A stretch of 20,841 nt of DNA, taken from Candidatus Helarchaeota ASGARD archaeon Hel_GB_B (lineage in GTDB: Archaea > Asgardarchaeota > Lokiarchaeia > Helarchaeales > HEL-GB-B). The DNA is taken from NCBI GenBank assembly GCA_005191425.1, contig SUPR01000066.1, forward strand, positions 1 through 20,841. Direction: 5' to 3'. The translations under genes were made by a program, and so were the position numbers. Under the pieces are notes generated by a model. The model was not told where the DNA came from. It searched no databases and saw only the letters and a list, made by a program, of their open reading frames with translations. Shown piece by piece: positions 1 to 20,841 of the stretch; positions within the stretch are counted from its first letter, which is position 1, and every line of letters starts with the position of its first letter.

Positions 1-561
1 ATATTCAGAATATCTTGAGATAATAATAATTGAAATCCGAGATTGACCATATTCATCATCAGAAGCTCCATGAATAAATTCTAAAATCTCTTTATTTCCA
101 AGTAAATTTGCTTCGTCGATGGCTAAAATTAATCGCGCCTCCTCTTTTCGTAATCGCTGTTTTAACAAAGTTAGAAGTTGTTCATCGCCAAATCCTCTAC
201 TAAAAATTCCAAATCTATTTAATAGGTCCATTAAAATAGAATTTTTTGACCGAAATGAATAACAATTATAATATTTGAAATAAATAAGATGGTTGTTTTT
301 TATAGAAATATTCTGTATGGCTTTTCCAAAATTTTTTACAAGAGCAGTTTTTCCGACACCTGGGGGACCAATAATTGCAACATTTATTCCTGATGAATTA
401 TCAAAACTCATAATCGGTTTAAAAGCTCGGGCTAGACTTACAATTTCAGTTTCACGCCGTGGAAGTTCATTAGGTACATAATTACTTAAGAGTGTTTCTT
501 CATTTTTGAAAAAAGACCGTTTAAATAATATATTTTCAATAAATTTTTCAGAATCTGACAA
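1..561 (-). CDS. cdc6: Cdc6/Orc1 AAA+ replication initiator, N-terminal part (runs off the window start; absent from ORF track)
   Basis: Manual translation from TTG at 561 is open for 187 codons to base 1. It shows the Orc1 N-terminal signature FKNEETLLSNYVPNELPRRETEIVSLA, Walker A GPPGVGKT, YYNC and Walker B ILAIDEA. Confidence 0.92.
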   Translation of the reverse strand, partial: MSDSEKFIENILFKRSFFKNEETLLSNYVPNELPRRETEIVSLARAFKPIMSFDNSSGINVAIIGPPGVGKTALVKNFGKAIQNISIKNNHLIYFKYYNCYSFRSKNSILMDLLNRFGIFSRGFGDEQLLTLLKQRLRKEEARLILAIDEANLLGNKEILEFIHGASDDEYGQSRISIIIISRYSEY

Positions 562-603
562 TTTTACCCGACCTTATTAAAGTAAAAAATAGTAATAATA
601 AAA

Positions 604-1812
604 TTAATCTTCAATTCCATGTTCTGTTATTGAAAATATCGCTTCTGCTTCAGGTAAACACGGACTGTCTATTAGACGTGCTACTCTTTTATTTGCCTTC
701 GATTTTCTTAAATATAATCTAAAAGTACTAGCATGGGCTAATACATTTCCACCTGTAGGTTTTGTAGGATCTCCGAAAAAAACTCCCGGTGATGATTGGA
801 CTTGGTTTGTTATATAAACTGTTAAATTATGTGCCTCCGCAAGCTGGAGTAATCTATGTAGGAATTTACTTAATTTTTGCTGTCTATCACTTAGCGTCCC
901 TCTACCAATATATTCTGATCTGAAATGAGATATAATTGAGTCCACAATTATTAGTCTTATATTTTTTTCTTTAATAATTGGAGCTAATTTCTCAACAATT
1001 AATTGTTGATGGTCACTATTATATGCCCTACAATAAATTACATTATCTAATACTTTATTCTTATCTAAAAAGTCATATCTATCTAAAATCTGTAAAAGTC
1101 TTTCAGGCCTAAAAGTACCTTCAGTATCAATATAACAGACGGCACCATTAAGTCCCCCTTTATCTGTTGGCAATTGGACTGTAACACATAATTGGTGCGC
1201 AATTTGAGTTTTACCCGTCCTAAATTCTCCAAATGCTTCGACAATTGACCTTGTCTCTATTCCTCCTCCAAGAATACCGTCTAATTCTTTAGAACCTGTG
1301 GTGAATCTTATTATCTTTTGTCTATCAGATAAAACTTCATTTGCAGTCTTAAATCCAATTTTTAATTGAGACCTTGCACTTTGGATTATTTTAGCACAAA
1401 CTGTTTCTCCAATACCTGTAGCTCCAGAAATTTCTGATGGACTGGCAACTGCAATAGCTTCCGCGCTATTATAACCTGCATCTTCAAGTTTAGTAGCAAT
1501 GGCAGGCCCAACTCCTTTTAAATCTCTTATATGTATGATTTGAACTTCATTATCTAAAATAGGTGCTTTTTCGATGATTGCTTTTTGATCGATAGGTATG
1601 TTATTTTCAACTTCATTGTAATCAACATCATTTAGTTCTACTAAATTAGTAAGTTCTTTTTCAATTTCTGATTCATTTAAATCATCAATAGGTTTACTAA
1701 TACTTTCAATTTTAATGTTTTTATTAGAATTCTTTTTTTTACTTTTCGAACTATTAGATGTGGTAGTTCTTTTTGTTGATTTTCTACTACTTGATTTTGA
1801 ATTTGTAGCCAT
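604..1812 (-). CDS. radA: DNA repair and recombination protein RadA with ~90-aa N-terminal extension
   Basis: HhH motif DLKGVGPAIATKL, FKTA polymerisation motif, Walker A GEFRTGKT, YIDTEGTFRPERL, Walker B LIIVDS, and GGNVLAHASTFRLYLRK. ATG at 1812 is preferred over GTG at 1821 because GTGATAAAAATG gives an SD-like GTGA. Confidence 0.97.
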   Translation of the reverse strand: MATNSKSSSRKSTKRTTTSNSSKSKKKNSNKNIKIESISKPIDDLNESEIEKELTNLVELNDVDYNEVENNIPIDQKAIIEKAPILDNEVQIIHIRDLKGVGPAIATKLEDAGYNSAEAIAVASPSEISGATGIGETVCAKIIQSARSQLKIGFKTANEVLSDRQKIIRFTTGSKELDGILGGGIETRSIVEAFGEFRTGKTQIAHQLCVTVQLPTDKGGLNGAVCYIDTEGTFRPERLLQILDRYDFLDKNKVLDNVIYCRAYNSDHQQLIVEKLAPIIKEKNIRLIIVDSIISHFRSEYIGRGTLSDRQQKLSKFLHRLLQLAEAHNLTVYITNQVQSSPGVFFGDPTKPTGGNVLAHASTFRLYLRKSKANKRVARLIDSPCLPEAEAIFSITEHGIED

Positions 1813-1864
1813 TTTTATCACTTTTTAATTTTGTAATTTATAATTGTTTTTTTAAATTTAAAAG

Positions 1865-1877
1865 ACTCTCAGAGAGT
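1865..1877. promoter_or_regulatory. Perfect 6-1-6 palindrome ACTCTC-A-GAGAGT upstream of radA; possible operator
   Basis: GC-richer palindrome in an AT-rich spacer, about 53 bp upstream of the radA ATG. Function is inferred only. Confidence 0.25.
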
Positions 1878-2064
1878 AAAATATAAGTAAAAAATCAAGC
1901 AACTACCTGAAAATTTAGTTAGCCATTAAGGAGAAATTAAGAGAATAGGAATTGATATATGTGTAATATCCGTTCAACTAATAATTGAAATTTAGAACAA
2001 AATAGATTTAATAAATAATTATTAGAAACAAAATTTGGATAATTACTAATTTTAACAAAAATAA

Positions 2065-2517
2065 TTACTTGATAATTATTTTATTTCCCCCTTTTTTCTT
2101 TGCCTCTTTTAATGCATTCTTAGCTAATTTTCTTAAAGGGTCACTCAATAAAAATTGCTTTTTCTTAGAAATTATAGGTTTATAGTCCAAATAAATTCCC
2201 TTTGCTATACCGATTGAAATTGTTGCATTTGATTTTGTAGTTTTCCCTAACTTTTCTATTTTTTGTCGAATATTGTCTAAATCTTTTAATAATTGATCAA
2301 AATCGGGCATTGAAAATAATAACATACATTCTTCTGTACCTTCTTTTCTATTTAATCCATATAATATTGAGCATGAATGTTTACTTGCTAAGTCAATTAT
2401 CATATCAGTTAGACATGATGTGATAATATTTTTTCTATATTTTTTCCAGCCTAAGTTCGCAACAACATCTTTAAACCTATCCAAATCTAGGAAAACTATT
2501 ACATTATATGGTCTCAT
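2065..2517 (-). CDS. Stand-alone GGDEF-like (nucleotide cyclase palm fold) protein with GTEEC motif
   Basis: IVFLDLDRFK matches the DxDxFK motif, GTEEC sits at the GG(D/E)EF position, ATISIGIA matches TxSIGVA, and the C-terminal ALKEAKKKGGNKIII matches ALYxAKxxGRNxV. Confidence 0.75.
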   Translation of the reverse strand: MRPYNVIVFLDLDRFKDVVANLGWKKYRKNIITSCLTDMIIDLASKHSCSILYGLNRKEGTEECMLLFSMPDFDQLLKDLDNIRQKIEKLGKTTKSNATISIGIAKGIYLDYKPIISKKKQFLLSDPLRKLAKNALKEAKKKGGNKIIIK

Positions 2518-2651
2518 TTCTATAAATTTTGCTAAAATATCTTAAATTTTTTATTTTATGTTTTTCTTCTTTAAAAAAATATTATAATATTATAATACCT
2601 AATAATAAATAAAATTAAATTTTATCATTTATTAAAAAACAATGAATTAAA

Positions 2652-3113
2652 ATGATTGGAAGGTATTTAGAAGATTTTAAAATTGGTGAAGAATTTATAA
2701 CACCACAAAGAACTATACATTTGCATGACATAACTCAATTTTGTAACTTAACCTGGTTTAACTTATCTATATTTTATGATGAAAATTATATTAAAGAAAA
2801 TACTGTTTGGAAAAATTATGTAGTACCTGGCCCATTTTTAATTGCCCTAGCATTAGGGTTGTACTTGAAACTGGGTCTATATGAAAAAACAATCATTGCA
2901 TTACTTGGTATTGAAAATATGAATTTTAAAAACCCTCTTATTGCTGGAGAAACAATGAAAACTATAGTAAAAGTTTTAAATATTAGGAAATCCACAAAAA
3001 ATCCGGATAGAGGAATTATACATTTACAATTTATAATAAAAAAATCTGATAATACTTTTGTAATGTCTTTTGAAATGTATCATTTATTAAAATGTAGAGA
3101 TCACAATAAATAA
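2652..3113 (+). CDS. MaoC-family (hot-dog fold) dehydratase
   Basis: GRYLEDFKIGEEFITPQRTI, VVPGP, LLGIENMNF and PLIAGETM..RKSTKNPDRGII are typical of MaoC/PaaZ C-terminal domains. Confidence 0.88.
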   Translation: MIGRYLEDFKIGEEFITPQRTIHLHDITQFCNLTWFNLSIFYDENYIKENTVWKNYVVPGPFLIALALGLYLKLGLYEKTIIALLGIENMNFKNPLIAGETMKTIVKVLNIRKSTKNPDRGIIHLQFIIKKSDNTFVMSFEMYHLLKCRDHNK

Positions 3114-3173
3114 ATAATATGCAAATCACTTTATAGAATAAATGTATAATAATGATTTATAATAAAATAAAAA

Positions 3174-3524
3174 TTAATAACGTTTAGGTCTTAATTGTGG
3201 TTTAGCTATTTTTATTAATTCTGCTGCTTTTTCTCTTAATGTTTCAATAGGTGTAGCCCAGATAATTTCTCCATTTTCAAAATTGACATAGATTTCACCA
3301 ATTATCCCATAACCATAAAGATTTCCATCGTCTAAAACAGCTGTCAAATCTATTAAAAATTTTATTGCTTTTTTTCCATTATCTAGTTCCACAAGACTTG
3401 GTGAGCATGCTGTATAGCCTGGGCCTCGCTCGTTCATTAAGAATTTATATACATTCCAATCTATTTCATCAGAAACTTTCCCATGTTCTGCCAGTACCTT
3501 TACAACTTTGGGTTTAGACTCCAT
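3174..3524 (-). CDS. Hypothetical protein, 116 aa
   Basis: Clean ORF with SD-like GGTAGTGA before ATG and globular alpha/beta composition. No family recognised. Confidence 0.8.
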   Translation of the reverse strand: MESKPKVVKVLAEHGKVSDEIDWNVYKFLMNERGPGYTACSPSLVELDNGKKAIKFLIDLTAVLDDGNLYGYGIIGEIYVNFENGEIIWATPIETLREKAAELIKIAKPQLRPKRY

Positions 3525-3869: not shown

Positions 3870-4598
3870 ATGACTAAAAATAAGATCAATGCATTAACAA
3901 AAAAGATCATTACATCTTCAATAGACGAAAGTCTCGAAGCTTCTATGGAAATACAAGACCTAATTATTGAAAAAAAAGATAATAAAAATATTTTAGGGCC
4001 TATCTTAATAGATAACTTAAAAACAGAAAAGGACATCTTAAAATTACGTAGAATCGTTTGGGCTATTAGTATTTTTGAAATTGAGGAAGCCAAGCCATTA
4101 TTAAGAAAATTTATTAAGCATGAAAATCAATTTTTAAGAGAAGAAGCAATATTAGCTCTCGGTATTTTAAAAGATGAGGAATCTATTGATGAGTTGAAAA
4201 AGATTTTAAACGATAAAAATGACCTTGCGAGGGAGGAAGCAGCAATTGCATTAGGTCTAATGGGAGTTAAAGATGCTATTGATATCTTAATAGACCAATT
4301 AGATGATGAAGATATCAATATTGTTATTGCGACATGTTTAGCCCTGTCTTATCTGCGAGACCCTAAGTCAATTCCACCATTAATTAAAAAAATAACTGAT
4401 GATAATAAATATGTAAGAAGATATGCAAAAAAGTCCGTTTTTACCTTTGGCAGAGCTGCACTAGATGATTTAAGAGAAGCATTAAAGGAAGCTCCGTTTC
4501 TAAAGAAAAGATATATTCGTTCATTGATAAATGAGATTGATAAAAGTGATTATTCCGAAGTACACCAAGTTTTTGAAAAAGTCTCATTCCCCAGATAA
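3870..4598 (+). CDS. HEAT/PBS-lyase repeat protein
   Basis: Repeated ~31-aa units: LREEAILALGIL, AREEAAIALGLM, IVIATCLALSYL, VRRYAKKSV, each followed by AIxxLIxxLxD-like helices. Confidence 0.88.
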   Translation: MTKNKINALTKKIITSSIDESLEASMEIQDLIIEKKDNKNILGPILIDNLKTEKDILKLRRIVWAISIFEIEEAKPLLRKFIKHENQFLREEAILALGILKDEESIDELKKILNDKNDLAREEAAIALGLMGVKDAIDILIDQLDDEDINIVIATCLALSYLRDPKSIPPLIKKITDDNKYVRRYAKKSVFTFGRAALDDLREALKEAPFLKKRYIRSLINEIDKSDYSEVHQVFEKVSFPR

Positions 4599-5182: not shown

Positions 5183-5884
5183 TTGGAAAAAATAAATACA
5201 TATATTAATATTTTAGATAAAAAATTAAATGGTGGTTTTTTAAAAAGTAGTTCATTTCTTCTATATGGCGAACCAGGTATTGGAAAAACAATATTTAGCC
5301 TTCAATTATTATTAAATCAAGCATTAAATAATGATATTTCGATATTGGTAAGTTGTGATAATTCAACTAATTCCATTAAATTAATGCTGAATACTTATTG
5401 GAAAAATATCATTTCTGAAATAAATTATAATAAATTTATAATTGTTGACAGTTATTCATGGCGGTTAAGCAGGATACTTAATCCAAATCAAATTTCATTA
5501 CAAAATTTGTCCGACTTTTTTAGTAATTTAATTGATACAATTGAAAAAATAAATAATACCCAAAATAAAATGCCTACAATGATTGTGGTTGATTCTATTA
5601 CCACAATTATTGAATATAATGGTATAAATGCAACGTCCAAATTCTTACAGACATTGTCAGCAATTAACAACGAATGGGAAATGGTAATTATTTTTATAAT
5701 GGAAGAAGGAGTCCATAACGTACAAGAAATGAAAAAGATTGAATATATATTGGACGGACTTATTTATTTATATAAAAAAAAGAACCAAACAAGATATCTT
5801 GAAATTCCACATATTCGATTTTCCAACCCAATTGGTCCAATAGAATATTCTATAGATAATAATGGCTTCCATTTCATAGAATAA
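5183..5884 (+). CDS. Single-domain KaiC/RAD55-like RecA-superfamily ATPase
   Basis: LDKKLNGGF, Walker A GEPGIGKT, IIVDSYSW, Walker B IVVDSIT, EYILDGLIYL, C-terminal YSIDNNGF. TTG start. Confidence 0.88.
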   Translation: MEKINTYINILDKKLNGGFLKSSSFLLYGEPGIGKTIFSLQLLLNQALNNDISILVSCDNSTNSIKLMLNTYWKNIISEINYNKFIIVDSYSWRLSRILNPNQISLQNLSDFFSNLIDTIEKINNTQNKMPTMIVVDSITTIIEYNGINATSKFLQTLSAINNEWEMVIIFIMEEGVHNVQEMKKIEYILDGLIYLYKKKNQTRYLEIPHIRFSNPIGPIEYSIDNNGFHFIE

Positions 5885-5924: not shown

Positions 5925-6527
5925 TTATTTTTCATATTTGGGTAAAATAGTTTCTCTAATTTTAGTTTCTAATGAATCGAATTCCTCAAACTTTCCTTCA
6001 ATTAAATAATTAAATAGAATATCAATTGATGAAATAAGATTATCAGGTTCTAAATTAAATTCTTGTTCATAGCGTTCTATTTTTTCGTGAGTAACTTTCA
6101 TAATGCTGGCAACTTTTTGCATAGAATTCATAGTATCTTCTATTTCTTTCCATAAGTCTTCAAGATATAAAATATTTAGTAAAAATTCTTCATGAGCCGA
6201 TTTACCAAACATTCTTAGACGGTCTTTAATTTCTTTAACATTTTTTGAATCATTTATTGTATTTTCAATGACAGAATATAAGTTTTTAATAGAATTTAAA
6301 GTGTTTCTCCTTATATTTAACCATTTTTTAATTTTCTTTATATTATTTGCCACTGTTTCTATATCTCTATTTAATAATTCAATTACTTGATTAATTTGTT
6401 CTGTAAATTCTTTTTTGCGAAGAACTAAAGAAGACCTTAATCTTACACCACTTATGTCTTTTTGAATCAAATAAATCAAATCAGATAACTTAGATAATGC
6501 CTCTTTATATTGTGTTATATCGTCCAT
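5925..6527 (-). CDS. Hypothetical alpha-helical/coiled-coil protein, 200 aa
   Basis: Long ORF with SD-like GGAG upstream and heptad-like charged helices. No family recognised. Confidence 0.8.
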   Translation of the reverse strand: MDDITQYKEALSKLSDLIYLIQKDISGVRLRSSLVLRKKEFTEQINQVIELLNRDIETVANNIKKIKKWLNIRRNTLNSIKNLYSVIENTINDSKNVKEIKDRLRMFGKSAHEEFLLNILYLEDLWKEIEDTMNSMQKVASIMKVTHEKIERYEQEFNLEPDNLISSIDILFNYLIEGKFEEFDSLETKIRETILPKYEK

Positions 6528-6681
6528 TTTTTGATTTGGCTCCTATTATTTTTAATTGAATTTAAAAAATTTCTATATTTAAATTTCATTTTGTTAATTT
6601 CTTAATAACTTTTTGATTAATTTTTTAACTCATTTTATCATTAAATAATATTTATATAATAGATATCTCAATCCATTTAAT

Positions 6682-7380
6682 ATGGTAAATCTAAGTGAAT
6701 TAATAAACTATTGGTTACCATTAATCTTCAAATTAATTAAAATTTGCTTGTATTTTAGTGCAATGATATGGTTTATTAAGAAAGCTCATAAAAAAGAGGA
6801 TAGTGCAAAATTTGAAATATTAATAAGTTTATTTTTTATGTTTATGGGAATAGGGAGCCTGTTAGAAGTTATAACGCAGAATTATTATCCTGAATTTTAT
6901 AGTGGTGTTGTATATTTATTATGGCCGGCTATATCAGCAGAAGCTCTTGTTTATTTTTTTGGATTTGTTGCTATTGGGCTGTTAACATTAGGAACAGAAA
7001 TCAATGTAAAGTTAAAAACTCATGGTATTCTGTCAATTATACCTTTTGCTTTAGCTGTAGCCACTTTATATTTTGGTATCTTAATTACTGAATATATTTA
7101 TCTTTCAGCTTTAATTATAGTAATTATCCCAATCTTATACTTTTATATTGCATTTAAAGCTCCAAAAGGACTAAAAGAAAAATCATTTTGTGTTGCAATT
7201 GGATATTTTTTAGTTTTTTTTGGTGAAGCTGCAAATTATTCAATTATGATGAGAGTTGAACCATTTAAATCCCTTTTTACAAATGTAGAATTATTATTTG
7301 GATATAAAATAGCTTTTATTCAGCCGTTAATTATAATAATTGGACTATTTTTTTTGTTCTATGGTTATAGAACAAAATAA
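6682..7380 (+). CDS. Integral membrane protein with ~7 TM helices and no cytoplasmic effector domain
   Basis: Seven hydrophobic segments counted by eye (e.g. ILISLFFMFMGIGSLL, GILSIIPFALAVATLYFGIL, IAFIQPLIIIIGLFFLFYGY). Confidence 0.8.
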   Translation: MVNLSELINYWLPLIFKLIKICLYFSAMIWFIKKAHKKEDSAKFEILISLFFMFMGIGSLLEVITQNYYPEFYSGVVYLLWPAISAEALVYFFGFVAIGLLTLGTEINVKLKTHGILSIIPFALAVATLYFGILITEYIYLSALIIVIIPILYFYIAFKAPKGLKEKSFCVAIGYFLVFFGEAANYSIMMRVEPFKSLFTNVELLFGYKIAFIQPLIIIIGLFFLFYGYRTK

Positions 7381-7682
7381 TTTATTTATTTTAAATTCAT
7401 TTTTGAATTTTTTAATTTTACATTATATATTTGTGAAATATTTTATGATTATAAAAATTTTAAAATATAAATTTTATTTTTTAATATTAAGAAAAATTTA
7501 AAGATATAAATGAAAATAATTTTTTTAATATTATAAAAATTAAAGATTCAAAAAGATTGTATAATTTAGAAATAAGTTCAATTTAAATAGCTAACTAAAA
7601 ATAAATTATTAAGATAAAAAATTTATTAAATTAAAAAATTTGTTTAAATTGAACCGATAATTTTAATCAAAAGGTCTAAATT

Positions 7683-8501
7683 ATGGCTATTTTAGGTATT
7701 TTTATTCAGTCAAAAAATGGAATTCCAGTATATAAAGAAACATGGTCTCCAAAAATAAAAGCGCTTGATGAAGGAGATGAATTATTAATATCCGGGTTTA
7801 TGAGTGCTATAAGTCAATTTGCAAATACATTTAAGCAAGATATAGCTTATATTAGATTTATACCACTTGAGTTTGCAAATGACAAAGGAATAGATTCAAT
7901 TTTGGTAGATTTAAAAGAATATTTAGTATTTGTATTTGTAGACCCATATCAATTTCATGATATGGTAAAAATTAAATTAGATATTATTTACAATCATGTC
8001 CTAAGTAAATATAAAAAGAATTTATCATATGGAAAAACGATTAAATTATCTCAAGATGACAGATCTTTTTGTTCAAAAATATTACATGATTCTTTAATTA
8101 AGGATTATATAAGTCAAAAGAGAATAATGTTAATTGAAACATTAGATTTATTTATAAATAATAACCCCGAAATTAGAGGCATTTCTATCAATTCATTTGA
8201 TAATACAATATTATTTAATTATAATATAGAACGAACTTATTTAGAAAATTTATTATATATGATGGGTAGTGGTATTACAAAAGTATCTGAATATGAAATA
8301 ATTCATAAACCTGTTATTGAAGATGGTGATTCTTTATTGGTTTGTTTAACAAATCCAGCAATTTCTTTTGATTTATCAGAGATAGGAGATAATATTGATT
8401 ATAATGTACCTTTATATTATTATGTTATTACAGATGCAGATTCTTCAATTGGCCCTTTAATTGGAGCTCTAATTGATATTATAAATCCAATTTTTTATTA
8501 A
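7683..8501 (+). CDS. Longin-like domain protein with a second roadblock/longin-like domain
   Basis: N-terminal ILGIFIQSKNGIPVYKETW...DELLISGFMSAISQFA is a longin pattern (beta-beta-helix, LxSGFxSAI). The second half IRGISINSFDNTILFNYN resembles a roadblock/profilin-like start. Confidence 0.65.
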   Translation: MAILGIFIQSKNGIPVYKETWSPKIKALDEGDELLISGFMSAISQFANTFKQDIAYIRFIPLEFANDKGIDSILVDLKEYLVFVFVDPYQFHDMVKIKLDIIYNHVLSKYKKNLSYGKTIKLSQDDRSFCSKILHDSLIKDYISQKRIMLIETLDLFINNNPEIRGISINSFDNTILFNYNIERTYLENLLYMMGSGITKVSEYEIIHKPVIEDGDSLLVCLTNPAISFDLSEIGDNIDYNVPLYYYVITDADSSIGPLIGALIDIINPIFY

Positions 8502-8512
8502 ATTTTTTAGTC

Positions 8513-11500
8513 TTATTTCTTATTATTATCTTGAGATTTTTCGGTCTTTTTTTCTTTTTTTAAAAGATTTTTAGGTTTTTTAGGGATTCTGGGACTACCA
8601 CCTCGAATTTTATCAAATTGAATTTTGTCATTTTTGTCTGTTTGTAATTCAGGACAGTCATTTTACTTATCAATTTTCACAGGACTTGGTGGTGGAGTCT
8701 TAATTTTTATTTTAGTAGTGGGCTCTTCTATTTTTATTTCGATAGGTTTTTCTGAATTTTGTAGATCATTATTTTGATCATTTTTGTTATAGGAATCTTG
8801 TGAATGATAAATTGCTTTAATACCTGTTTCTGTAAGGTTTAGGTCGTTATAATTGTCAATAAATCCGTTGTCAATTAGAAATGTTATATCTAATTTTACT
8901 TTTTCAATTTCCAAATCACAATATGTGGCTATAAGGTCAAATGACTTTAGGCCGTCATTAATGGAATTAAGAATTTTTAATAGTTCTTTATTTAAGACTA
9001 ATGGGACATGTTTTTCGACTAAAGGTTCTCTATGGGAAACAATTGAACTAAATGGAAAAATTGTATTGGTTAATTTATCAATATTCATAAATATATTAAT
9101 GTCTCCAGTCCATGCCAATAATTGGGCTTGGTATTTTGTTTCAAATAAGAAAATAAATTCCTTTAATTTTTTTCTAATAATTGGGAGGTCAGCTTCTGCA
9201 AGAATTGCTTCGATGACTTGATCGCCATATTCAAATATTATTTTTTTGTCCATATGGTCTATTGTTTTCAATTTTTTTTGGCTTGAAGTAAGTTCTTTTA
9301 CCATTCCTCTAATACCCATTAAAGCTGCCGAAACTAGTTGAGAATCCATTTGTATCTTGGTAAGTGCGCGGTCATAAATAGCAACTCCATCATGAGCATG
9401 TATAATATAAAGTCGTTTAATTTTTCGTTCCCAATTTCTAGATTTCAACTTTTGTTCAAATTTATAACCTGCAAATACGGCTATTAATGCAGCACTAATC
9501 CCTAAAAGCCAGCCCCATTGAATATACCAAGGAGTTGCTATAGTTTTTTCAATTATAGTTAGGGGTATAGATAATGTTTGAATGGAATAATTTTCTTTTT
9601 CAATATAAATAACTATAGAATAAGGTTGTGACCTTGGAGGAATATTGAATTGTATGTGAATATAATATCGACCCGGATAACTTTTATCTTCAAGGAAAAA
9701 ACCTTCTCTCCCTAAAAAGAAATATGAGACATTAGCATTTATAATTGGTTTATCGCTTACTTTTTCTTTTAATCAAATTTCTAACTCTATTGTACTTCCA
9801 GAATATTGGACTAATGAATTCGGACTTGTAATGTTAATTTGAAGGGGAATTATTTTTAAAACTATATTTGTGGAAACAAATCCAAAATTATTACTAGAGA
9901 TTACTATATAATAAGTCCCAATTTCTAAGAAAGATGAGTTCAGGGTAAAGTAATAAAAGCCATTTCCCAGCTCAGTTAGGTTATTAATACCAATAGAAAT
10001 TTCATAATAACTTAAAGTTGCACCTAATATTGGTCTGCCATCTGAAAAATTATACGAAACTGTTATATTTATTAAATCCTTAAAAGGAACCTCAAAATAA
10101 GGCTTTAATGAATAGATATATGTTGGGACATTTTGAATTGTAACTGGAATTATTATAGAAGAAAAAGAATAATTTTCCTTAGAGAAATCAAGTATCAAGT
10201 CATATGGGACAACTCTCGGGGAAATTGACGCAGTAATTGAAGTATTATAATGCCCAGGTCTACCATATAATGATAAATCAGTTAAATTACCATTTAATGA
10301 TTGTAAAACATACGAAACGAAAACTCCAGAAACAGGTATATTGTGGTCAGTGTCATTGATATTTATTTCCAATGTAAAATTATTTAAAGTTTCTATAGAG
10401 ATTGCTGTTGGATATTCTATTTTAGTATCAATTTTTCTAATAGTTAGCAAGGCTTGTGTAGAAACAATTCCATATTTTGTGCCACATAAATTGATATAAT
10501 AACTTCCTATGCTTAATTTGCTTGAATTTATTGTAAAATAATACATTCCTGAATTTAATTCTTTTAAATTTCCAGTCCCAATTGTAGGTTCACTGTACGT
10601 CAAATTTGCACTTAGAATAGAGTTACCCATTGAATCATTAAAAATAGCCGTGATATTTATCTGATCTCCGATAGGTATTATAAAGTTGGGCTGAGTCACA
10701 TAAATATATGTTGTCCTTGCGTCTACTTGAAAAATATAGGTAGAATTAATATAATTTTTATGCGTTGCATTTATAATAATTGTATGAACACCTTCAAAAG
10801 GTAAATCTGAAGTTTCTAGATTAATTCCATAATATCCTCCACCCAACGAATTTAATTTTTTAATAACTGGCATATGAGAAGAGTTCGTCCAATTACATTG
10901 TACATCAGCATCTAATACCGGTTTATTACTATCATTATCATTTAATATTATTTCTAAATAAGTTAAGTCCCCAAATTTTTTATAAATAATGTTGTATTTT
11001 GATAAATCTTGAGGATAATTTGGAATTATTTTTAATTTATGGAGTATAGTAAAATTTCCTTCAATGTAACCTGCTTCATTTGATCCCATCCAATTAACTT
11101 CATATTTATAAACACCAATAGTTGAATTTAATCCAGAAATGGTAATGTTAGGAAAAATGCATACTCCATCATTTTTAGGGTTAGTTGAATTAAAAAACCA
11201 GATTTCATTATTAGGGTCTGTAATAGTCAAATTAACTTTATAATTTTCCACATTTTTTGGTATTTCGTTGGTCAAATTTCTAATAGTGGCTATAATATGA
11301 GATGTATTTCCCGGATAAAAAATTAAATTGTTTTCCCATTTATTTCCATTTAAAATTTGACTTGAAGTATTTACGATATAATTTATTGATATTACTTTAA
11401 TAGTCCAATATCCATCAGGAAAATTTGTGAGGTTATTTGTATTAACTTGGAATTTGTTACCATATAAATTACCAAATTGACATAACCCTCTTAAATTATT

Positions 11501-13399
11501 GGTAGAATTTATTGGTTCATATACATCAGTAATATTCCAGTCAATTGGTTTCGAGAAATTAAAGAAATGGTTTTTATATTTTGAAGGGACTTGAATATAA
11601 GGAGTAAATGTCCATGAATTATTTGCATTATTGATGGTATTTACGGTTGGTGTCAATTGGGTATTTTTGTTAATAAATAAATTTAAATCACAATCAAATG
11701 AAATTTCCGCATCCGTAGTAATATTATTAAAGGGATACCAATTAAAGAAGACTTCTATATTTCTAGTAGTTGAATTATAAACAAAATTGTTTGTTTGTAT
11801 AAATATACCTTTTCCAAATTCACCTTTATTCTCATTTGTAATGTTATTTGCTGTAATATTAATTTGAGACGGAAGAGCTTTTGTCTTTAAAAATAAATGA
11901 AAATTATCAATCCAGACTTCCGGACTTGGGTCTGACCCACTATATACGACTGAAGATGTAGATTGCAGACCAATTTTAATATTTGTTAAAGATAAACTTA
12001 GATACTTTGGATTTATTGGAATTAACCCAGTATTATACCAAATATTTTTATCAGAAATTTCATCAAAATGTAAATTAAAAACTTTTTTTAATGAACTTTT
12101 CTGAGAGAATAATTCAACATCAATAGAATCTGAATTTGGATAATATCCTAAATTTCCAAGAGCTTGTATAATTTTTTCTGCAGAATCGGAAGTACCATCA
12201 TCGACCACCAGGATATTTTTTATATTAGAAGGGTCTAAATATTCAAGAGTTCGGTTTAATATTAATGTCCTATTAATTTCGCTTGCAATAGAAGCAAAAT
12301 TTAAAGAATGAAACATAGTTTTGTTTGTTCTCACACCTGCATAGTCGCCAGTATCGAATTTAAGGCAGTTAATACCACCATTGGTCCGGTTAATATTGTC
12401 TATTTCATTAGCATCTATTAAACTCATATTATATATTCCATTATAAGGGTCAGATATTCCACTTATTGATGACTTATCGCTAAATGAAATATATGTGACA
12501 TTAAAATATTGACTGAGCCAATCATCCCAATTTGGGGAGCTAATTGAATCGTATGCTATTGAACTACCAGTCATATAGACTTTTCCACCATTATCAAGAT
12601 AATTTCCAATTTCAGTCTGTTCTTCTAAAGATAAAATATCGGTTAAAGTATCACCAGTTGACCAAATAGCAATATCATCATTTGAAACCAAGGGGTTTCC
12701 ACTCCAATCAGTGGTCCAATAAGAATACGTTTTATTTGGATTTTGAGGACGTGTACTATTAACTGCTACAAAGATATTAAATCCAAGTGATGATAAATCC
12801 CAACTATATGCATTTACCTTATAATCAAAACTTAAATATGCCTCAGAAATATCATCTCTATTTATATTTGTCAGGTTCTGAGAAACATATATTGAGTCTA
12901 ATTTATTATAAGAAGTTTCACCTGATACTGTTTCACTGTCCATTTTCATATATATACAACTTGAATCATCTAGCCCAGTTCCATTGAAACCAATATACCA
13001 AGAATCACCTGTTTTATTATGAAACGTATATAAACTCCAATTATTTGGATATTCAAACCCAGAATCAGTTATCCAATCCCTTTTCTCTTTTAAATTGTAA
13101 ATATTTCCTATTAATAAATAGGGAGTCCAAGATGGTGGAAGTGGGACTCCAGCTTGTCCTATATTTGTTAGTTTAGTCGTATAATTATATGTAATTAATA
13201 AATTAAAAATAGAATCTGTCCTATTTGCATATTCATTAATAGTTATTGGATCTCCTCGAGTAGATAATAAATTATTCTTAACTGAAATCTCATTTGAGAT
13301 ATGCATTGAATCAATTGAATTTATTTCATTAATATAAGTGATTATAAGTATAATTATAAATAGCAAAAATATTAAAATAAAAAACCTTTTTGACTTCAT
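8513..13399 (-). CDS. Receptor-like surface protein (~1628 codons): N-terminal signal/anchor, large ectodomain with Ig-like repeats, TM helix, longin-like domain, winged helix, Pro/Lys-rich tail. Interrupted by in-frame TGA (9773-9775) and probably TAA (8663-8665); may be a pseudogene or contain assembly errors.
   Basis: Track ORFs 9773..13399 and 8663..9448 share a frame, and the intervening 108 codons are open. They complete an Ig-like repeat and encode TM WYIQWGWLLGISAALIAVFAGY. A further 49 open codons follow the TAA, ending at TAA 8513-8515. Confidence 0.75.
9540..10711 (-). repeat. Tandem duplication of a ~196-aa two-domain Ig-like unit
   Basis: TYIY starts at 10711 and 10123 (588-nt period). 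Paired motifs: INITAIF/INITVSY, ELNSGMYYFTINSS/ELGNGFYYFTLNSS, PGHY..PRVVPY..KENYS/PGRY..PRSQPY..KENYS. Confidence 0.85.
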
Positions 13400-18958: not shown

Positions 18959-20841
18959 TCATTGATTTAGTTCCATTGTAGACTTAATTTCTAAAAAGTT
19001 TAATTTTTCACTCGTATTCATGTTTGGCATGGCAGAAAAAACACCTTTTAGAGGATTATCACCTACAAATAATCTTTTTAATTTTTTTAAATTTTTCAAT
19101 GAAAATGGTATTCTTTTTAAATTATTTTTATTTAGCATCAAAATTTCCAAATTTTTTAAATTACCTAATGTATCAGGTATTTCTTCTAACTCATTAGAGT
19201 TTAAATAAAGTCTTTTTAGATTAGTTAAATTGCCTATTTCTCCGGGCAATTCTTTTAATTTATTATTATTTAAAAAACATATTAGAAGCTTGTTTAATGA
19301 TCCAAAAGAAGGGTCAAGCCTTGATATTCTATTTCTTGATAGATATAGTTTTTCAAGTGAGACCAAAGATTTGATAGAACTTGAAATTTTCACTAATTTA
19401 TTTTGGCGTAAGTCAAGATTTTTTAAATTAGAAAATGATTTTTTGAAATTTGGTAAATTTTTTATCTGATTTCCTTCCAGATCAAGTAATATTAATTCCT
19501 TTAGATTTGAAATTTCTGGTGGTAATTTTCGAATCAGATTCCATTTGCAATATAATAATTTAAGATTTTCAGAATTACACAATGATTGTGGGATTTTTTT
19601 TAATTTATTATTATTAATGTTAAGTTTTTCTAAAGATTTAAGATTTAAGTTTTTAGGAAGCTCTTCAAGATTATTATTTTCTAAATATAATACTTTTAGA
19701 GAGGATAAATTTCCAATGCTATCAGGTAATTTCTTTAATTTATTGAAAGATAAATCAAGGATTCTCAGTTTTTTTAAATTTCCAATATTATCTGGTAATA
19801 TAGTTAGATTATTTGAGGAAATTTTTAAAATTTCTAAATTGTTTAAATTGCATATAAAAGATGGAAATTCATTAAGACATGTAAAATTTAAATTTAACTT
19901 TTTTAAATATAAGAAATTTTCAATTTCTTCGGGAATTTGAGTTAATTTATTTGTTAAGAAATTAATACTTATAACATGTCCATTTTCAATGGTATATTCT
20001 ATTTTTTTAGAAATTATTTTTAAAATCCTGAGAGAATATTGCTCTTTTTCATTAAGATCTGGCTCATCTAATTTATAATTTTCCTTAATATAAGATTCTG
20101 GTAGATACTTGACCATCATTTCAATTGGATTATTTTCAATTTGAATTCTACTTAAATTGTTTAGATTTTTGAAGGATTCAGGTAATGAAATTAAATTATT
20201 ATTATTTAAACTGATGGTCGTCAAATTTTGTAATTTTCCAATATCTTCGGGTAATTCTGTTATGTTATTATCATCTAAGTTTAAATTTTTAAGGGAATTT
20301 AGTTCACATATAGAGTTTGGTAATGAAGTTAAATTGTTTTTAGCCAAATTTAGAGATTCTAATTTTTTTAGTCTGCCGATATCTTCTGGGATTTGTATTA
20401 TTTCATTATTTTCCAAATATAATTCTTTTAATTCCTTACATTCACATATATTTTCAGGAATTTGCGTAATACCACAATCACGGACGTAAAGGTACTTAAG
20501 TTTCTTTAAGTTCCCGATACTTTCAGGGATTTGCTTAGATTTAATATTCCAATATTTCCAATTCCTAAATCGAATCTCAACAGCGTGTCCATCTTTTAAT
20601 ATAAAACCTGAAAATGAAATTGAATTTTTAAAGCTATCTACACATATATCTAATTCACATTGGTCTTTACAAAATTGTCATTCTTCGTCCAGGATATACC
20701 CATTGTCCATTACTAATTCCACAATTTCTTTTGCGATTGGATTTTCCGAATTTTCATATAATTCTAGAAGTTTTTTACCTATTAGATAAAGTCGGTGATA
20801 TTTACGATCAGAATTATTCAAATGGATGTTATGATCAACTT
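18959..20841 (-). CDS. Leucine-rich-repeat protein (5' end beyond window), with in-frame TGA at 20678-20680
   Basis: Many 23-aa LxxLxLxxNxLxxLPxxIGxL repeats. The track start (TTG 20416) falls mid-repeat (LYLENN). The frame stays open for 141 further codons to the window edge except for one TGA, and includes more LRR (QIPESIGNLKKLKYLYVRDCGITQIPE). Confidence 0.85.

Follow-up and report, generated by a model that had tools for sequence, protein, structure and literature searches.

What does an archaeal protein make when it keeps the fold and catalytic acids of a diguanylate cyclase and lacks the residues with which such an enzyme reads guanine? The question is raised by a gene on contig SUPR01000066.1 of Candidatus Helarchaeota archaeon Hel_GB_B (GCA_005191425.1), of which positions 1 to 20,841 were analysed; this whole 20,841-nucleotide stretch is called the window here. 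The gene (2065..2517, minus strand, stop codon included) has an ATG start and 150 codons plus a stop, and its product (P0001) is a stand-alone, minimal GGDEF-like palm domain of 150 residues according to the open reading frame (ORF) call, Pfam and NCBIfam searches, a family profile, an AlphaFold2 model and Foldseek. Since its catalytic core is kept and its guanine-reading residues and sensor domains are lost, the protein is probably an active nucleotidyltransferase, dependent on a nucleoside triphosphate (NTP), which transfers a nucleotide to a product other than cyclic di-GMP (c-di-GMP). The first-pass annotation, made from the letters of the window, had proposed a cyclase or transferase with a non-c-di-GMP product, possibly a second messenger. 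The general part of that proposal is still the best reading, whereas for the messenger part no linked receptor, effector or sensor was found.

Alignment with HMMER to DgcR and other GGDEF chains shows which parts of the active site are kept. D11, in the motif D11-L-D13-R-F15 at the end of strand 1 (2473..2487, minus strand), falls on the metal-binding Asp of diguanylate cyclases, D327 in PleD. The position of the guanine-binding Asn is V19, that of the His of "GH" is W24, and that of the guanine-binding Asp is T33, which lies past a five-residue insertion. A family-specific loop, W24-x-x-Y27-x-(P)-N30-x-x-T33 (2419..2448, minus strand), stands in place of the GH..GD guanine-binding stretch. 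The equivalent of GG(D/E)EF is an extended hairpin, G54-L-N-R-K-E-G60-T61-E62-E63-C64 (2326..2358, minus strand), in which G60-T61-E62-E63-C64 aligns with the motif itself. The C-terminal third (residues 96-150; 2068..2232, minus strand) is basic and contains the last sheet strand, a basic loop and a last helix with an invariant K140 and a K/R141, followed by GGN; K140 falls on the transition-state Lys of GGDEF enzymes. The window protein is a bare domain, with no sensor or other extra domain and no RxxD I-site upstream of GTEE. The first-pass annotation had read much of this correctly: the metal Asp retained, the guanine-binding Asn changed to Val, the downstream GD missing, the acidic pair kept in GTEEC, and no sensor domain, I-site or EAL partner, the last of these being absent even genome-wide.

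The window protein misses every curated cut-off when searched as a single sequence. Its best Pfam match is GGDEF_GdpP (PF24898; E-value 9.4e-5, 23.1 bits against a cut-off of 30), followed by GGDEF itself (PF00990; 0.022, 15.0 bits against 23.8). The latter match begins at position 34 of the 161 in the model, and the first 33 or so positions are absent from the protein. In NCBIfam, TIGR00254 reaches 1.3e-4 (21.7 bits against 37.4), and a SiaD match at 1.4e-5 is also below its cut-off. A profile of ten homologues (alignment A1) finds DgcR in the PDB at 4.7e-5, and in a library of 1.84 billion proteins it matches canonical GGDEF proteins with E-values, computed for the whole library, of about 3e-7 to 4e-4. 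The similarity to GGDEF domains is beyond chance. In databases the members are named "hypothetical protein" or "GGDEF domain-containing protein", and one homologue has a precomputed GGDEF_GdpP annotation. Other palm families gave no such match: Pfam returned nothing for PF18182 (mCpol) at E<=10, for PF05165 (GTP cyclohydrolase III, GCH-III) or for PF04446 (Thg1), and the mCpol structure 9mnr is absent from the profile matches in the PDB.

The AlphaFold2 model, built from A1, has a mean predicted local distance difference test score (pLDDT) of 88.9 and a predicted template modelling score (pTM) of 0.85; only residues of about 110-120, the flexible basic loop, are uncertain, with a pLDDT of about 57. 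Foldseek against the PDB ranks GGDEF domains first and class III cyclases next. In a second, independent all-against-all structure alignment (VIA; 50 matches listed), GGDEF domains align at Z 13.7, with a root-mean-square deviation (rmsd) of 3.0 Å over 129 residues, and the alignment with PleD begins at PleD residue 317. The mCpol of the Panoptes system, OptS (9mnr), which the palm resembles in size, follows at Z 13.4 with the best rmsd, 2.5 Å over 111 of 119 residues; then come the Cmr2 palm (Z 11.0), Y-family polymerase palms (Z about 11) and GCH-III (2qv6; Z 10.9). Thg1 is not among the 50 structural matches listed, and a distant relation to it remains compatible with this. Given the GGDEF-first ranking and the alignment at Z 13.7, the fold is therefore confidently predicted to be a GGDEF-type palm, as the first-pass annotation had proposed. 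Atlas feature scores are 0.91 for GdpP-type clusters, 0.90-0.91 for mCpol clusters and 0.88-0.89 for short archaeal GCH_III-type clusters. The atlas also holds short (118-134 aa), stand-alone GCH_III-type proteins from Nitrososphaerota, which are another uncharacterised archaeal "minimal palm" family.

Are these substitutions peculiar to one protein, or do they define a family? An exhaustive scan of the 1.84 billion proteins gave 40 cluster representatives at E<=1e-10, and a scan in which each prokaryotic species was represented by one genome gave 115 loci; conservation was evaluated over 93 non-redundant members, so that the family has at least that many. D11, D13, N30, G54, G60, T61, E62 and K140 are invariant, and E63 is kept in 92 of 93, which bears out the expectation that the D-x-D and GTEE residues would be conserved among homologues. 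L12, F15, G23, Y27, P29, T33, L55 and R59 are 90-98% conserved, with Y27 at 92% and T33 at 98%. The column equivalent to Asn335 of PleD holds V, T, M, I, S or A and never Asn, and the Asp344-equivalent column is Thr in 91 members. The second Gly of GG has become the invariant Thr61, giving the motif G-T-E-E-(A/V/C), where the Phe position of GGDEF is Ala, Val or Cys, and Phe in only three members. From the sequences, the family signature is D-L-D-x-F ... G-W-x-x-Y-x-P-N-x-x-T ... G-L-D-x-x-R-G-T-E-E ... K-(K/R)-x-G-G-N. The window protein departs from it at two places. It has Lys at the near-invariant Pro29 (2431-2433, minus strand), the sole such case among the members, and Glu at Arg59 (2341-2343, minus strand), which it shares with others to make nine, including its closest homologues P0003 and P0004.

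The gene was found in Asgard archaea (Jord-/Freyarchaeia and Heimdall- and Lokiarchaeia-type metagenome-assembled genomes, MAGs), in Desulfurococcales-type organisms (Ignicoccus pacificus DSM 13166, Pyrodictium, Hyperthermus, Staphylothermus and Acidilobaceae), and in Methanomethylicota, Nezhaarchaeales, Geoarchaeota, Culexmicrobium, Theionarchaea and one Thermococci MAG. The belief, recorded in the first-pass annotation, that similar short proteins occur in TACK archaea was thus confirmed by the species-level scan. Of 251 genomes sampled from Thermoprotei, the class to which I. pacificus belongs, 95 have the gene, always as a single copy and in stable synteny. In Asgard archaea it is patchy by family (13 of 201 genomes), and among 40 relatives of the source genome it occurs only in a sister genome of the same genus. 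The family tree puts the window protein next to Heimdall-type sequences, in a clade that is sister to the PHP-linked Heimdall clade described below. No fused forms longer than 345 aa were found, which is weak evidence; 390-aa open frames in two Thermoprotei genomes were considered as fusions and rejected, being adjacent genes. Altogether this is a distinct, conserved, archaeal family of stand-alone proteins within the GGDEF superfamily.

It is not the first notice of such proteins. Galperin in 2005 listed "truncated" GGDEF sequences, MK0296 and APE1864 (PMC1183210), and Anantharaman et al. in 2010 predicted that archaeal GGDEF relatives are active but non-signalling (PMC2904730). Like the present family, these formed a small archaeal group, truncated, with three acids kept and no signalling domains, and Aeropyrum, the source of APE1864, is one of the Desulfurococcales, a group that often has the family. 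Methanopyrus and Aeropyrum are not among the 80 loci listed of the 115. Matched by description only, the proteins of the 2005 and 2010 papers probably belong to this family. Neither paper has its Asgard members, its motif set or charge pattern, or its links to PHP, Toprim and TgtA. The family is therefore one known to exist but uncharacterised, and what is apparently new is the motif definition, the wide Asgard and TACK distribution, the gene links and the charge pattern.

If the catalytic center is that of a cyclase, does the rest of the protein look like one? Compared with PleD, WspR and DgcR (PF00990), the window protein is a homologous palm with the metal Asp in D-x-D-x-F, the acidic pair of the hairpin and the transition-state Lys of the last helix. 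It differs in that the N-terminal part of the domain and both guanine-binding residues are gone, GG has become G-T and Phe a small residue, there is an insertion with Y-x-P-N, the hairpin is three residues longer, there is no I-site, sensor or dimerisation domain, and its scores fall below the curated cut-offs. It differs also in charge. Over the last 50 or so residues the median net charge of the 93 members is +10 (10th-90th percentile +7 to +12), whereas the corresponding stretch in 91 canonical GGDEF domains, placed with the profile used for the members, has +1 (-1 to +4); the preceding two thirds of the family proteins have -8. The basic region consists of the final sheet strand, the flexible Arg/Lys-rich loop and the K140 helix, and its equivalent in GGDEF enzymes flanks the triphosphate site. 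This suggests that the patch contacts a polyanion, as substrate or activator, although it could also be a surface for head-to-tail oligomerisation.

Gene neighbours were used to look for the company that the family keeps. ORFs were called in 81 loci and clustered, and the clusters were annotated; no neighbour is universal, and four links recur. The first is a PHP phosphoesterase of about 190-230 aa (PF02811 and PF13263) with intact metal ligands, whose best named relatives, both weak, are pAp phosphatase and RNase RNM, which are TrpH-type enzymes. Its gene comes next after the family gene, on the same strand, in 11 loci from Heimdall, Loki and Methanomethylicota, with spacings from a 26-bp overlap to a 46-bp gap, and at one further locus (L067) a short ORF separates the family gene from the downstream PHP gene. 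In three Theionarchaea/Thermococci loci it immediately precedes the family gene, at spacings between a 2-bp gap and a 10-bp overlap, and there are three further adjacent pairs (genomes G172, G129 and G176). On the family tree, PHP-linked loci occupy at least four clades, which lie on both sides of the midpoint root. Apart from PHP, the Heimdall loci and the Loki loci have no related neighbours in common.

The remaining links are rarer. The protein P0050 has a Toprim-family domain fused to an almost intact family domain in which the second acidic residue is Gln, and its gene stands in an operon (locus L090, 4457-6237, plus strand) between a YggU-like gene (PF02594) and a PHP gene, with a 10-bp gap and, toward PHP, a 17-bp overlap. 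The gene for TgtA (TIGR00432, 1e-167) overlaps the start of the family gene by 4-13 bp in Jord-/Freyarchaeia and Asgardarchaeum. In a Methanomethylicota MAG (locus L011, about 6350-9019, plus strand), TgtA, the family gene and PHP overlap or abut as one operon, and this order may be the ancestral arrangement behind the TgtA-only and PHP-only links. In Pyrodictiaceae a divergent TGT-like gene lies two genes away, beyond FeoB (L062 10671-11798, L069 10593-11717 and L057 10710-11918, all minus strand); its 375-403-aa product matches residues 35-260 of TgtA by BLASTP at 5e-9 and Pfam TGT at 1.9e-4, below the cut-off, and it falls in no curated family. In the Nezhaarchaeales clade, the genes for a TRAM-domain protein and an RsmB-like methyltransferase neighbour the family gene. 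The upstream side in Desulfurococcales carries TBP and an SbcD-related metallophosphoesterase (TIGR00024), and a radical-SAM gene and an aKMT-like methyltransferase lie nearby in varied order. In summary, the links to PHP, operonic or fused, are recurrent, and those to Toprim and TGT-family genes are rarer.

The PHP link was also evaluated for exclusivity, and PHP was rejected as an exclusive partner of the family: paralogues occur in 27 of 35 Asgard genomes, some of them without the family. The source genome has two PHP paralogues, both elsewhere and in unrelated contexts; one of them (L084, 514-2950, plus strand, on contig C176) belongs to a compact cluster of four genes, the others being two DUF2889 genes and one DUF169 gene. 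A complex prediction for the family protein and its operonic PHP (the L011 pair, with alignments) gave a score of 0.00 and was counted neither way. On a metagenome contig of 1123 bases from the Joint Genome Institute (JGI), the protein P0055 joins PHP to a degenerate copy of the family domain without D-L-D and G-T-E-E, which suggests, by its sequence, a non-catalytic and possibly scaffolding derivative.

Is there any sign of a signalling system around the gene? The source genome (93.7% complete) has no match to the GGDEF, EAL, PilZ or DAC models, all four of which respond in control genomes, and PF00990 matches nowhere in it at E<=0.01. DAC, the c-di-AMP synthase domain, is also absent from five other family-bearing genomes and from all of 35 Asgard genomes, both those that have the family and those that lack it. 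A complementary distribution of the family and DAC was therefore rejected, DAC being missing regardless. In the 81 loci no receptor, effector (2TM-beta, CARF and others) or sensor domain is fused or linked, and the PADLOC defence models gave no match. In one clade a gene for a winged helix-turn-helix (wHTH) DUF4443 protein follows the family gene; it was rejected as a specific receptor partner, and the adjacency was treated as local synteny, because DUF4443 occurs in 147 of 201 Asgard genomes and the family in 13. A 2023 review states that c-di-GMP was undetected in archaea (PMC10249747). The first-pass annotation had likewise held that c-di-GMP signalling is not established in archaea, a statement now dated, as cyclase activity was reported in 2026 for canonical archaeal GGDEF proteins (PMC13725321). 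Those are proteins other than this family, namely multi-domain proteins of Methanocella and haloarchaea, and the report does not mention Asgard, Desulfurococcales or Thermoproteota.

Which product, then, would the enzyme make? The analysis leans slightly, and tentatively, toward a predicted nucleotidyltransferase that works on the ends of RNA, DNA or oligonucleotides together with PHP, because the partners are of nucleic-acid type, no signalling partner was found, and the charge pattern is unlike that of cyclases. In this mechanism two metal ions would be held by D11 and E62/E63, and the triphosphate of the NTP by K140, K/R141 and the main chain after strand 1. The base would be read by the Y-x-P-N-x-x-T loop and not by the guanine-selecting Asn/Asp pair. 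A 3'-OH would attack the alpha-phosphate of the bound NTP, the acceptor being the end of an RNA (possibly tRNA), of a DNA or of a short 5'-phosphorylated oligonucleotide, which the strongly basic C-terminal third would grip. The protein would work like a Thg1-like or terminal-transferase end-repair enzyme, and the PHP phosphoesterase, operonic in several lineages and unlinked in the source genome, would be its end-processing partner.

The recurrent partners, namely the operonic PHP, the fused Toprim, TgtA, the TGT-like protein and the TRAM protein, are of nucleic-acid type, and together with the basic third they fit a transferase linked to nucleic acids at least as well as they fit a messenger synthase. 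There is also a published suggestion that some GGDEF domains may be RNA nucleotidyltransferases (PMC2904730). Thg1 (PF04446) is a precedent for a GGDEF-related palm acting at the end of an RNA, a tRNA; it belongs to the same palm superfamily (PMC2904730), and it is stand-alone and archaeal, but it has no sequence match to the family, is about 100 residues longer and has an extra domain. Repair systems of the PolX and LigD type offer an analogy of working only: they also pair a nucleotide-adding domain with an end-cleaning phosphoesterase, but their transferase folds (Pol beta-type or archaeo-eukaryotic primase, AEP) are unrelated, and there is no sign of DNA-break repair for the family.

Several observations weigh against an end transferase. 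The closest relatives in sequence and structure, GGDEF and mCpol, all form cyclic oligonucleotides from free NTPs, and a 150-residue palm without fingers or thumb is small for gripping a nucleic acid. The RNA-type neighbours vary by lineage and are each weak alone, and archaeal genomes abound in genes of this kind. PHP paralogues are frequent also where an Asgard genome lacks the family, a PHP of TrpH type would be equally suited to degrading linear dinucleotides, and in the window's own genus neither PHP, TgtA nor Toprim is beside the family gene. As for the basic region, its role could instead be to bind an activating nucleic acid or to support oligomerisation. Ignicoccus pacificus carries a Thg1 homologue and the family gene together; since it encodes both, the family is not a simple substitute for Thg1, and replacement of Thg1 by the family was rejected.

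The closest competitor is that the protein is a synthase of a nucleotide second messenger other than c-di-GMP, a cyclic or linear di- or oligonucleotide, which is possible though a little less credible than an end transferase. Here the minimal palms would self-associate, each with one purine NTP, and condense them jointly; the product would be degraded by a phosphodiesterase, either the operonic PHP or, for Desulfurococcales, the metallophosphoesterase encoded nearby, and a nucleic acid bound to the basic tail might act as activator, as in cGAS, OAS or DisA. The nearest relatives are indeed cyclases, and OptS is particularly close: it is a bare palm of similar size that constitutively makes 2',3'-c-di-AMP as a tetramer, a precedent for a domain of such size being a complete enzyme. 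The family differs from OptS (PF18182) in having no match at the sequence level, no linked 2TM-beta, CARF or other effector, and a position outside defence islands, in single copy and in synteny that is stable within clades. The Thr at the Asp344-equivalent position recalls the Ser of ATP-admitting Hypr GGDEF enzymes, which, in 2016 work by Hallberg et al., reportedly carry a Ser that admits ATP. Operons of a synthase and a phosphodiesterase are the rule for such messengers, and 5'-phosphorylated dinucleotides are hydrolysed by TrpH-type PHP enzymes. With no DAC in the family-bearing genomes tested and no GGDEF, EAL or PilZ in the source genome, no other cyclic-dinucleotide synthase was seen.

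Against a messenger synthase stands, first of all, the absence of any fused or linked receptor, effector or sensor from the 81 loci; the wHTH-DUF4443 neighbour, which might have served, is a gene general to archaea and not specific to the family. For a messenger synthase, a Toprim fusion and neighbours such as TgtA, the TGT-like gene and TRAM would be unusual, DAC is not distributed in complement to the family, and the +10 C-terminal third is foreign to canonical GGDEF domains. The more specific proposal, a synthase of an undescribed purine di- or oligonucleotide messenger in TACK and Asgard archaea with the operonic PHP as its phosphodiesterase, seems somewhat unlikely.

The protein might also bind or slowly hydrolyse an NTP as a regulatory module, transferring no nucleotide and modulating another protein, PHP for example. 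The model for this is the degenerate GGDEF domain of GdpP/YybT, an ATP-binding domain with weak ATPase activity. GGDEF_GdpP is the best single-sequence Pfam match, one homologue is so annotated, and GdpP-type clusters score high in the atlas; both are N-terminally "truncated" GGDEF forms that were listed together in the 2005 survey (PMC1183210), and the degenerate PHP fusion P0055 suggests that a non-catalytic role may exist. However, the match is under the GdpP cut-off, and the gene is never fused to DHH/DHHA1, nor to PAS. The catalytic acids are not degenerate: D11, E62, E63 and K140 vary little or not at all among the Asgard, TACK and euryarchaeal members, which exceeds what binding would need. 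A regulatory module is accordingly judged improbable.

It is very improbable that the protein is an ordinary diguanylate cyclase which produces c-di-GMP despite its divergent motifs. It does have GGDEF homology, with the metal ligands and the Lys kept, and the canonical archaeal GGDEF proteins have cyclase activity (PMC13725321), though Asgard, Desulfurococcales and Thermoproteota go unmentioned in that 2026 survey. What speaks against it is that no member has Asn at the Asn position, 98% have Thr at the Asp position, GG is GT, Phe is replaced by Ala, Val or Cys, the N-terminal part of the domain is absent, all curated cut-offs are missed, and the source genome is without EAL or PilZ.

Least probable of all is a GCH-III-like hydrolase that acts on GTP and feeds a purine-derived pathway, an idea prompted by the link of TgtA to 7-deazaguanine metabolism: TgtA is operonic in three lineages, 2qv6 does align, and short archaeal GCH_III-type clusters are found in the atlas, but PF05165 has no sequence match, the structural match is weaker than that to GGDEF or mCpol, GCH-III has two domains where the window protein has one, and the preQ0 pathway begins with the product of GCH-I and not that of GCH-III.

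Why would either of the leading readings matter? Nucleotide signalling and RNA-end chemistry are poorly mapped in TACK and Asgard archaea, and here is a GGDEF-superfamily enzyme whose catalytic core is intact, whose base-reading loop has changed and whose partner is recurrently PHP, and which is present in single copy in more than one third of sampled Thermoprotei. If it makes a messenger, the messenger would be a new archaeal one. If it is an end transferase, it would join Thg1 as a second lineage of GGDEF-related palms that work at the ends of nucleic acids, and it would bear on the proposal that GGDEF, Cas10 and Thg1 share an origin. The motif set, gene links and charge pattern supply concrete mutants and partners for a direct test, and because the family is present in the cultivated hyperthermophiles Ignicoccus, Pyrodictium and Staphylothermus, a thermostable protein should be easy to obtain.

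In the window itself, a RadA gene (Rad51/RecA family; 604..1821, minus strand) lies 243 bp downstream of the family gene on the same strand, and a Cdc6/Orc1-type AAA+ gene (1..561, minus strand), cut by the window end, lies downstream of RadA, in the same order as at locus L004. The synteny of the family gene and RadA is kept only in the window's own genus (loci L003 and L004), and RadA adjacency was not upheld as a functional link. No RNA sequencing run was listed for positions 600-3200. The order of family gene, RadA and Cdc6/Orc1 (604-2517, minus strand) superficially resembles the bacterial radA-disA operon, in which disA encodes a c-di-AMP synthase. The likeness is probably a coincidence, because the RadA link was seen in no other lineage.

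Farther along, the largest ORF of the window (9773-13399, minus strand) encodes 1208 aa and has no Pfam match at E<=0.001. A KaiC-like ATPase is encoded at 5183-5884 (plus strand), a HEAT-repeat protein at 3870-4598 (plus strand) and a 485-aa leucine-rich-repeat protein at 18959-20416 (minus strand). The eukaryote-like repeat content of the window fits an Asgard genome.

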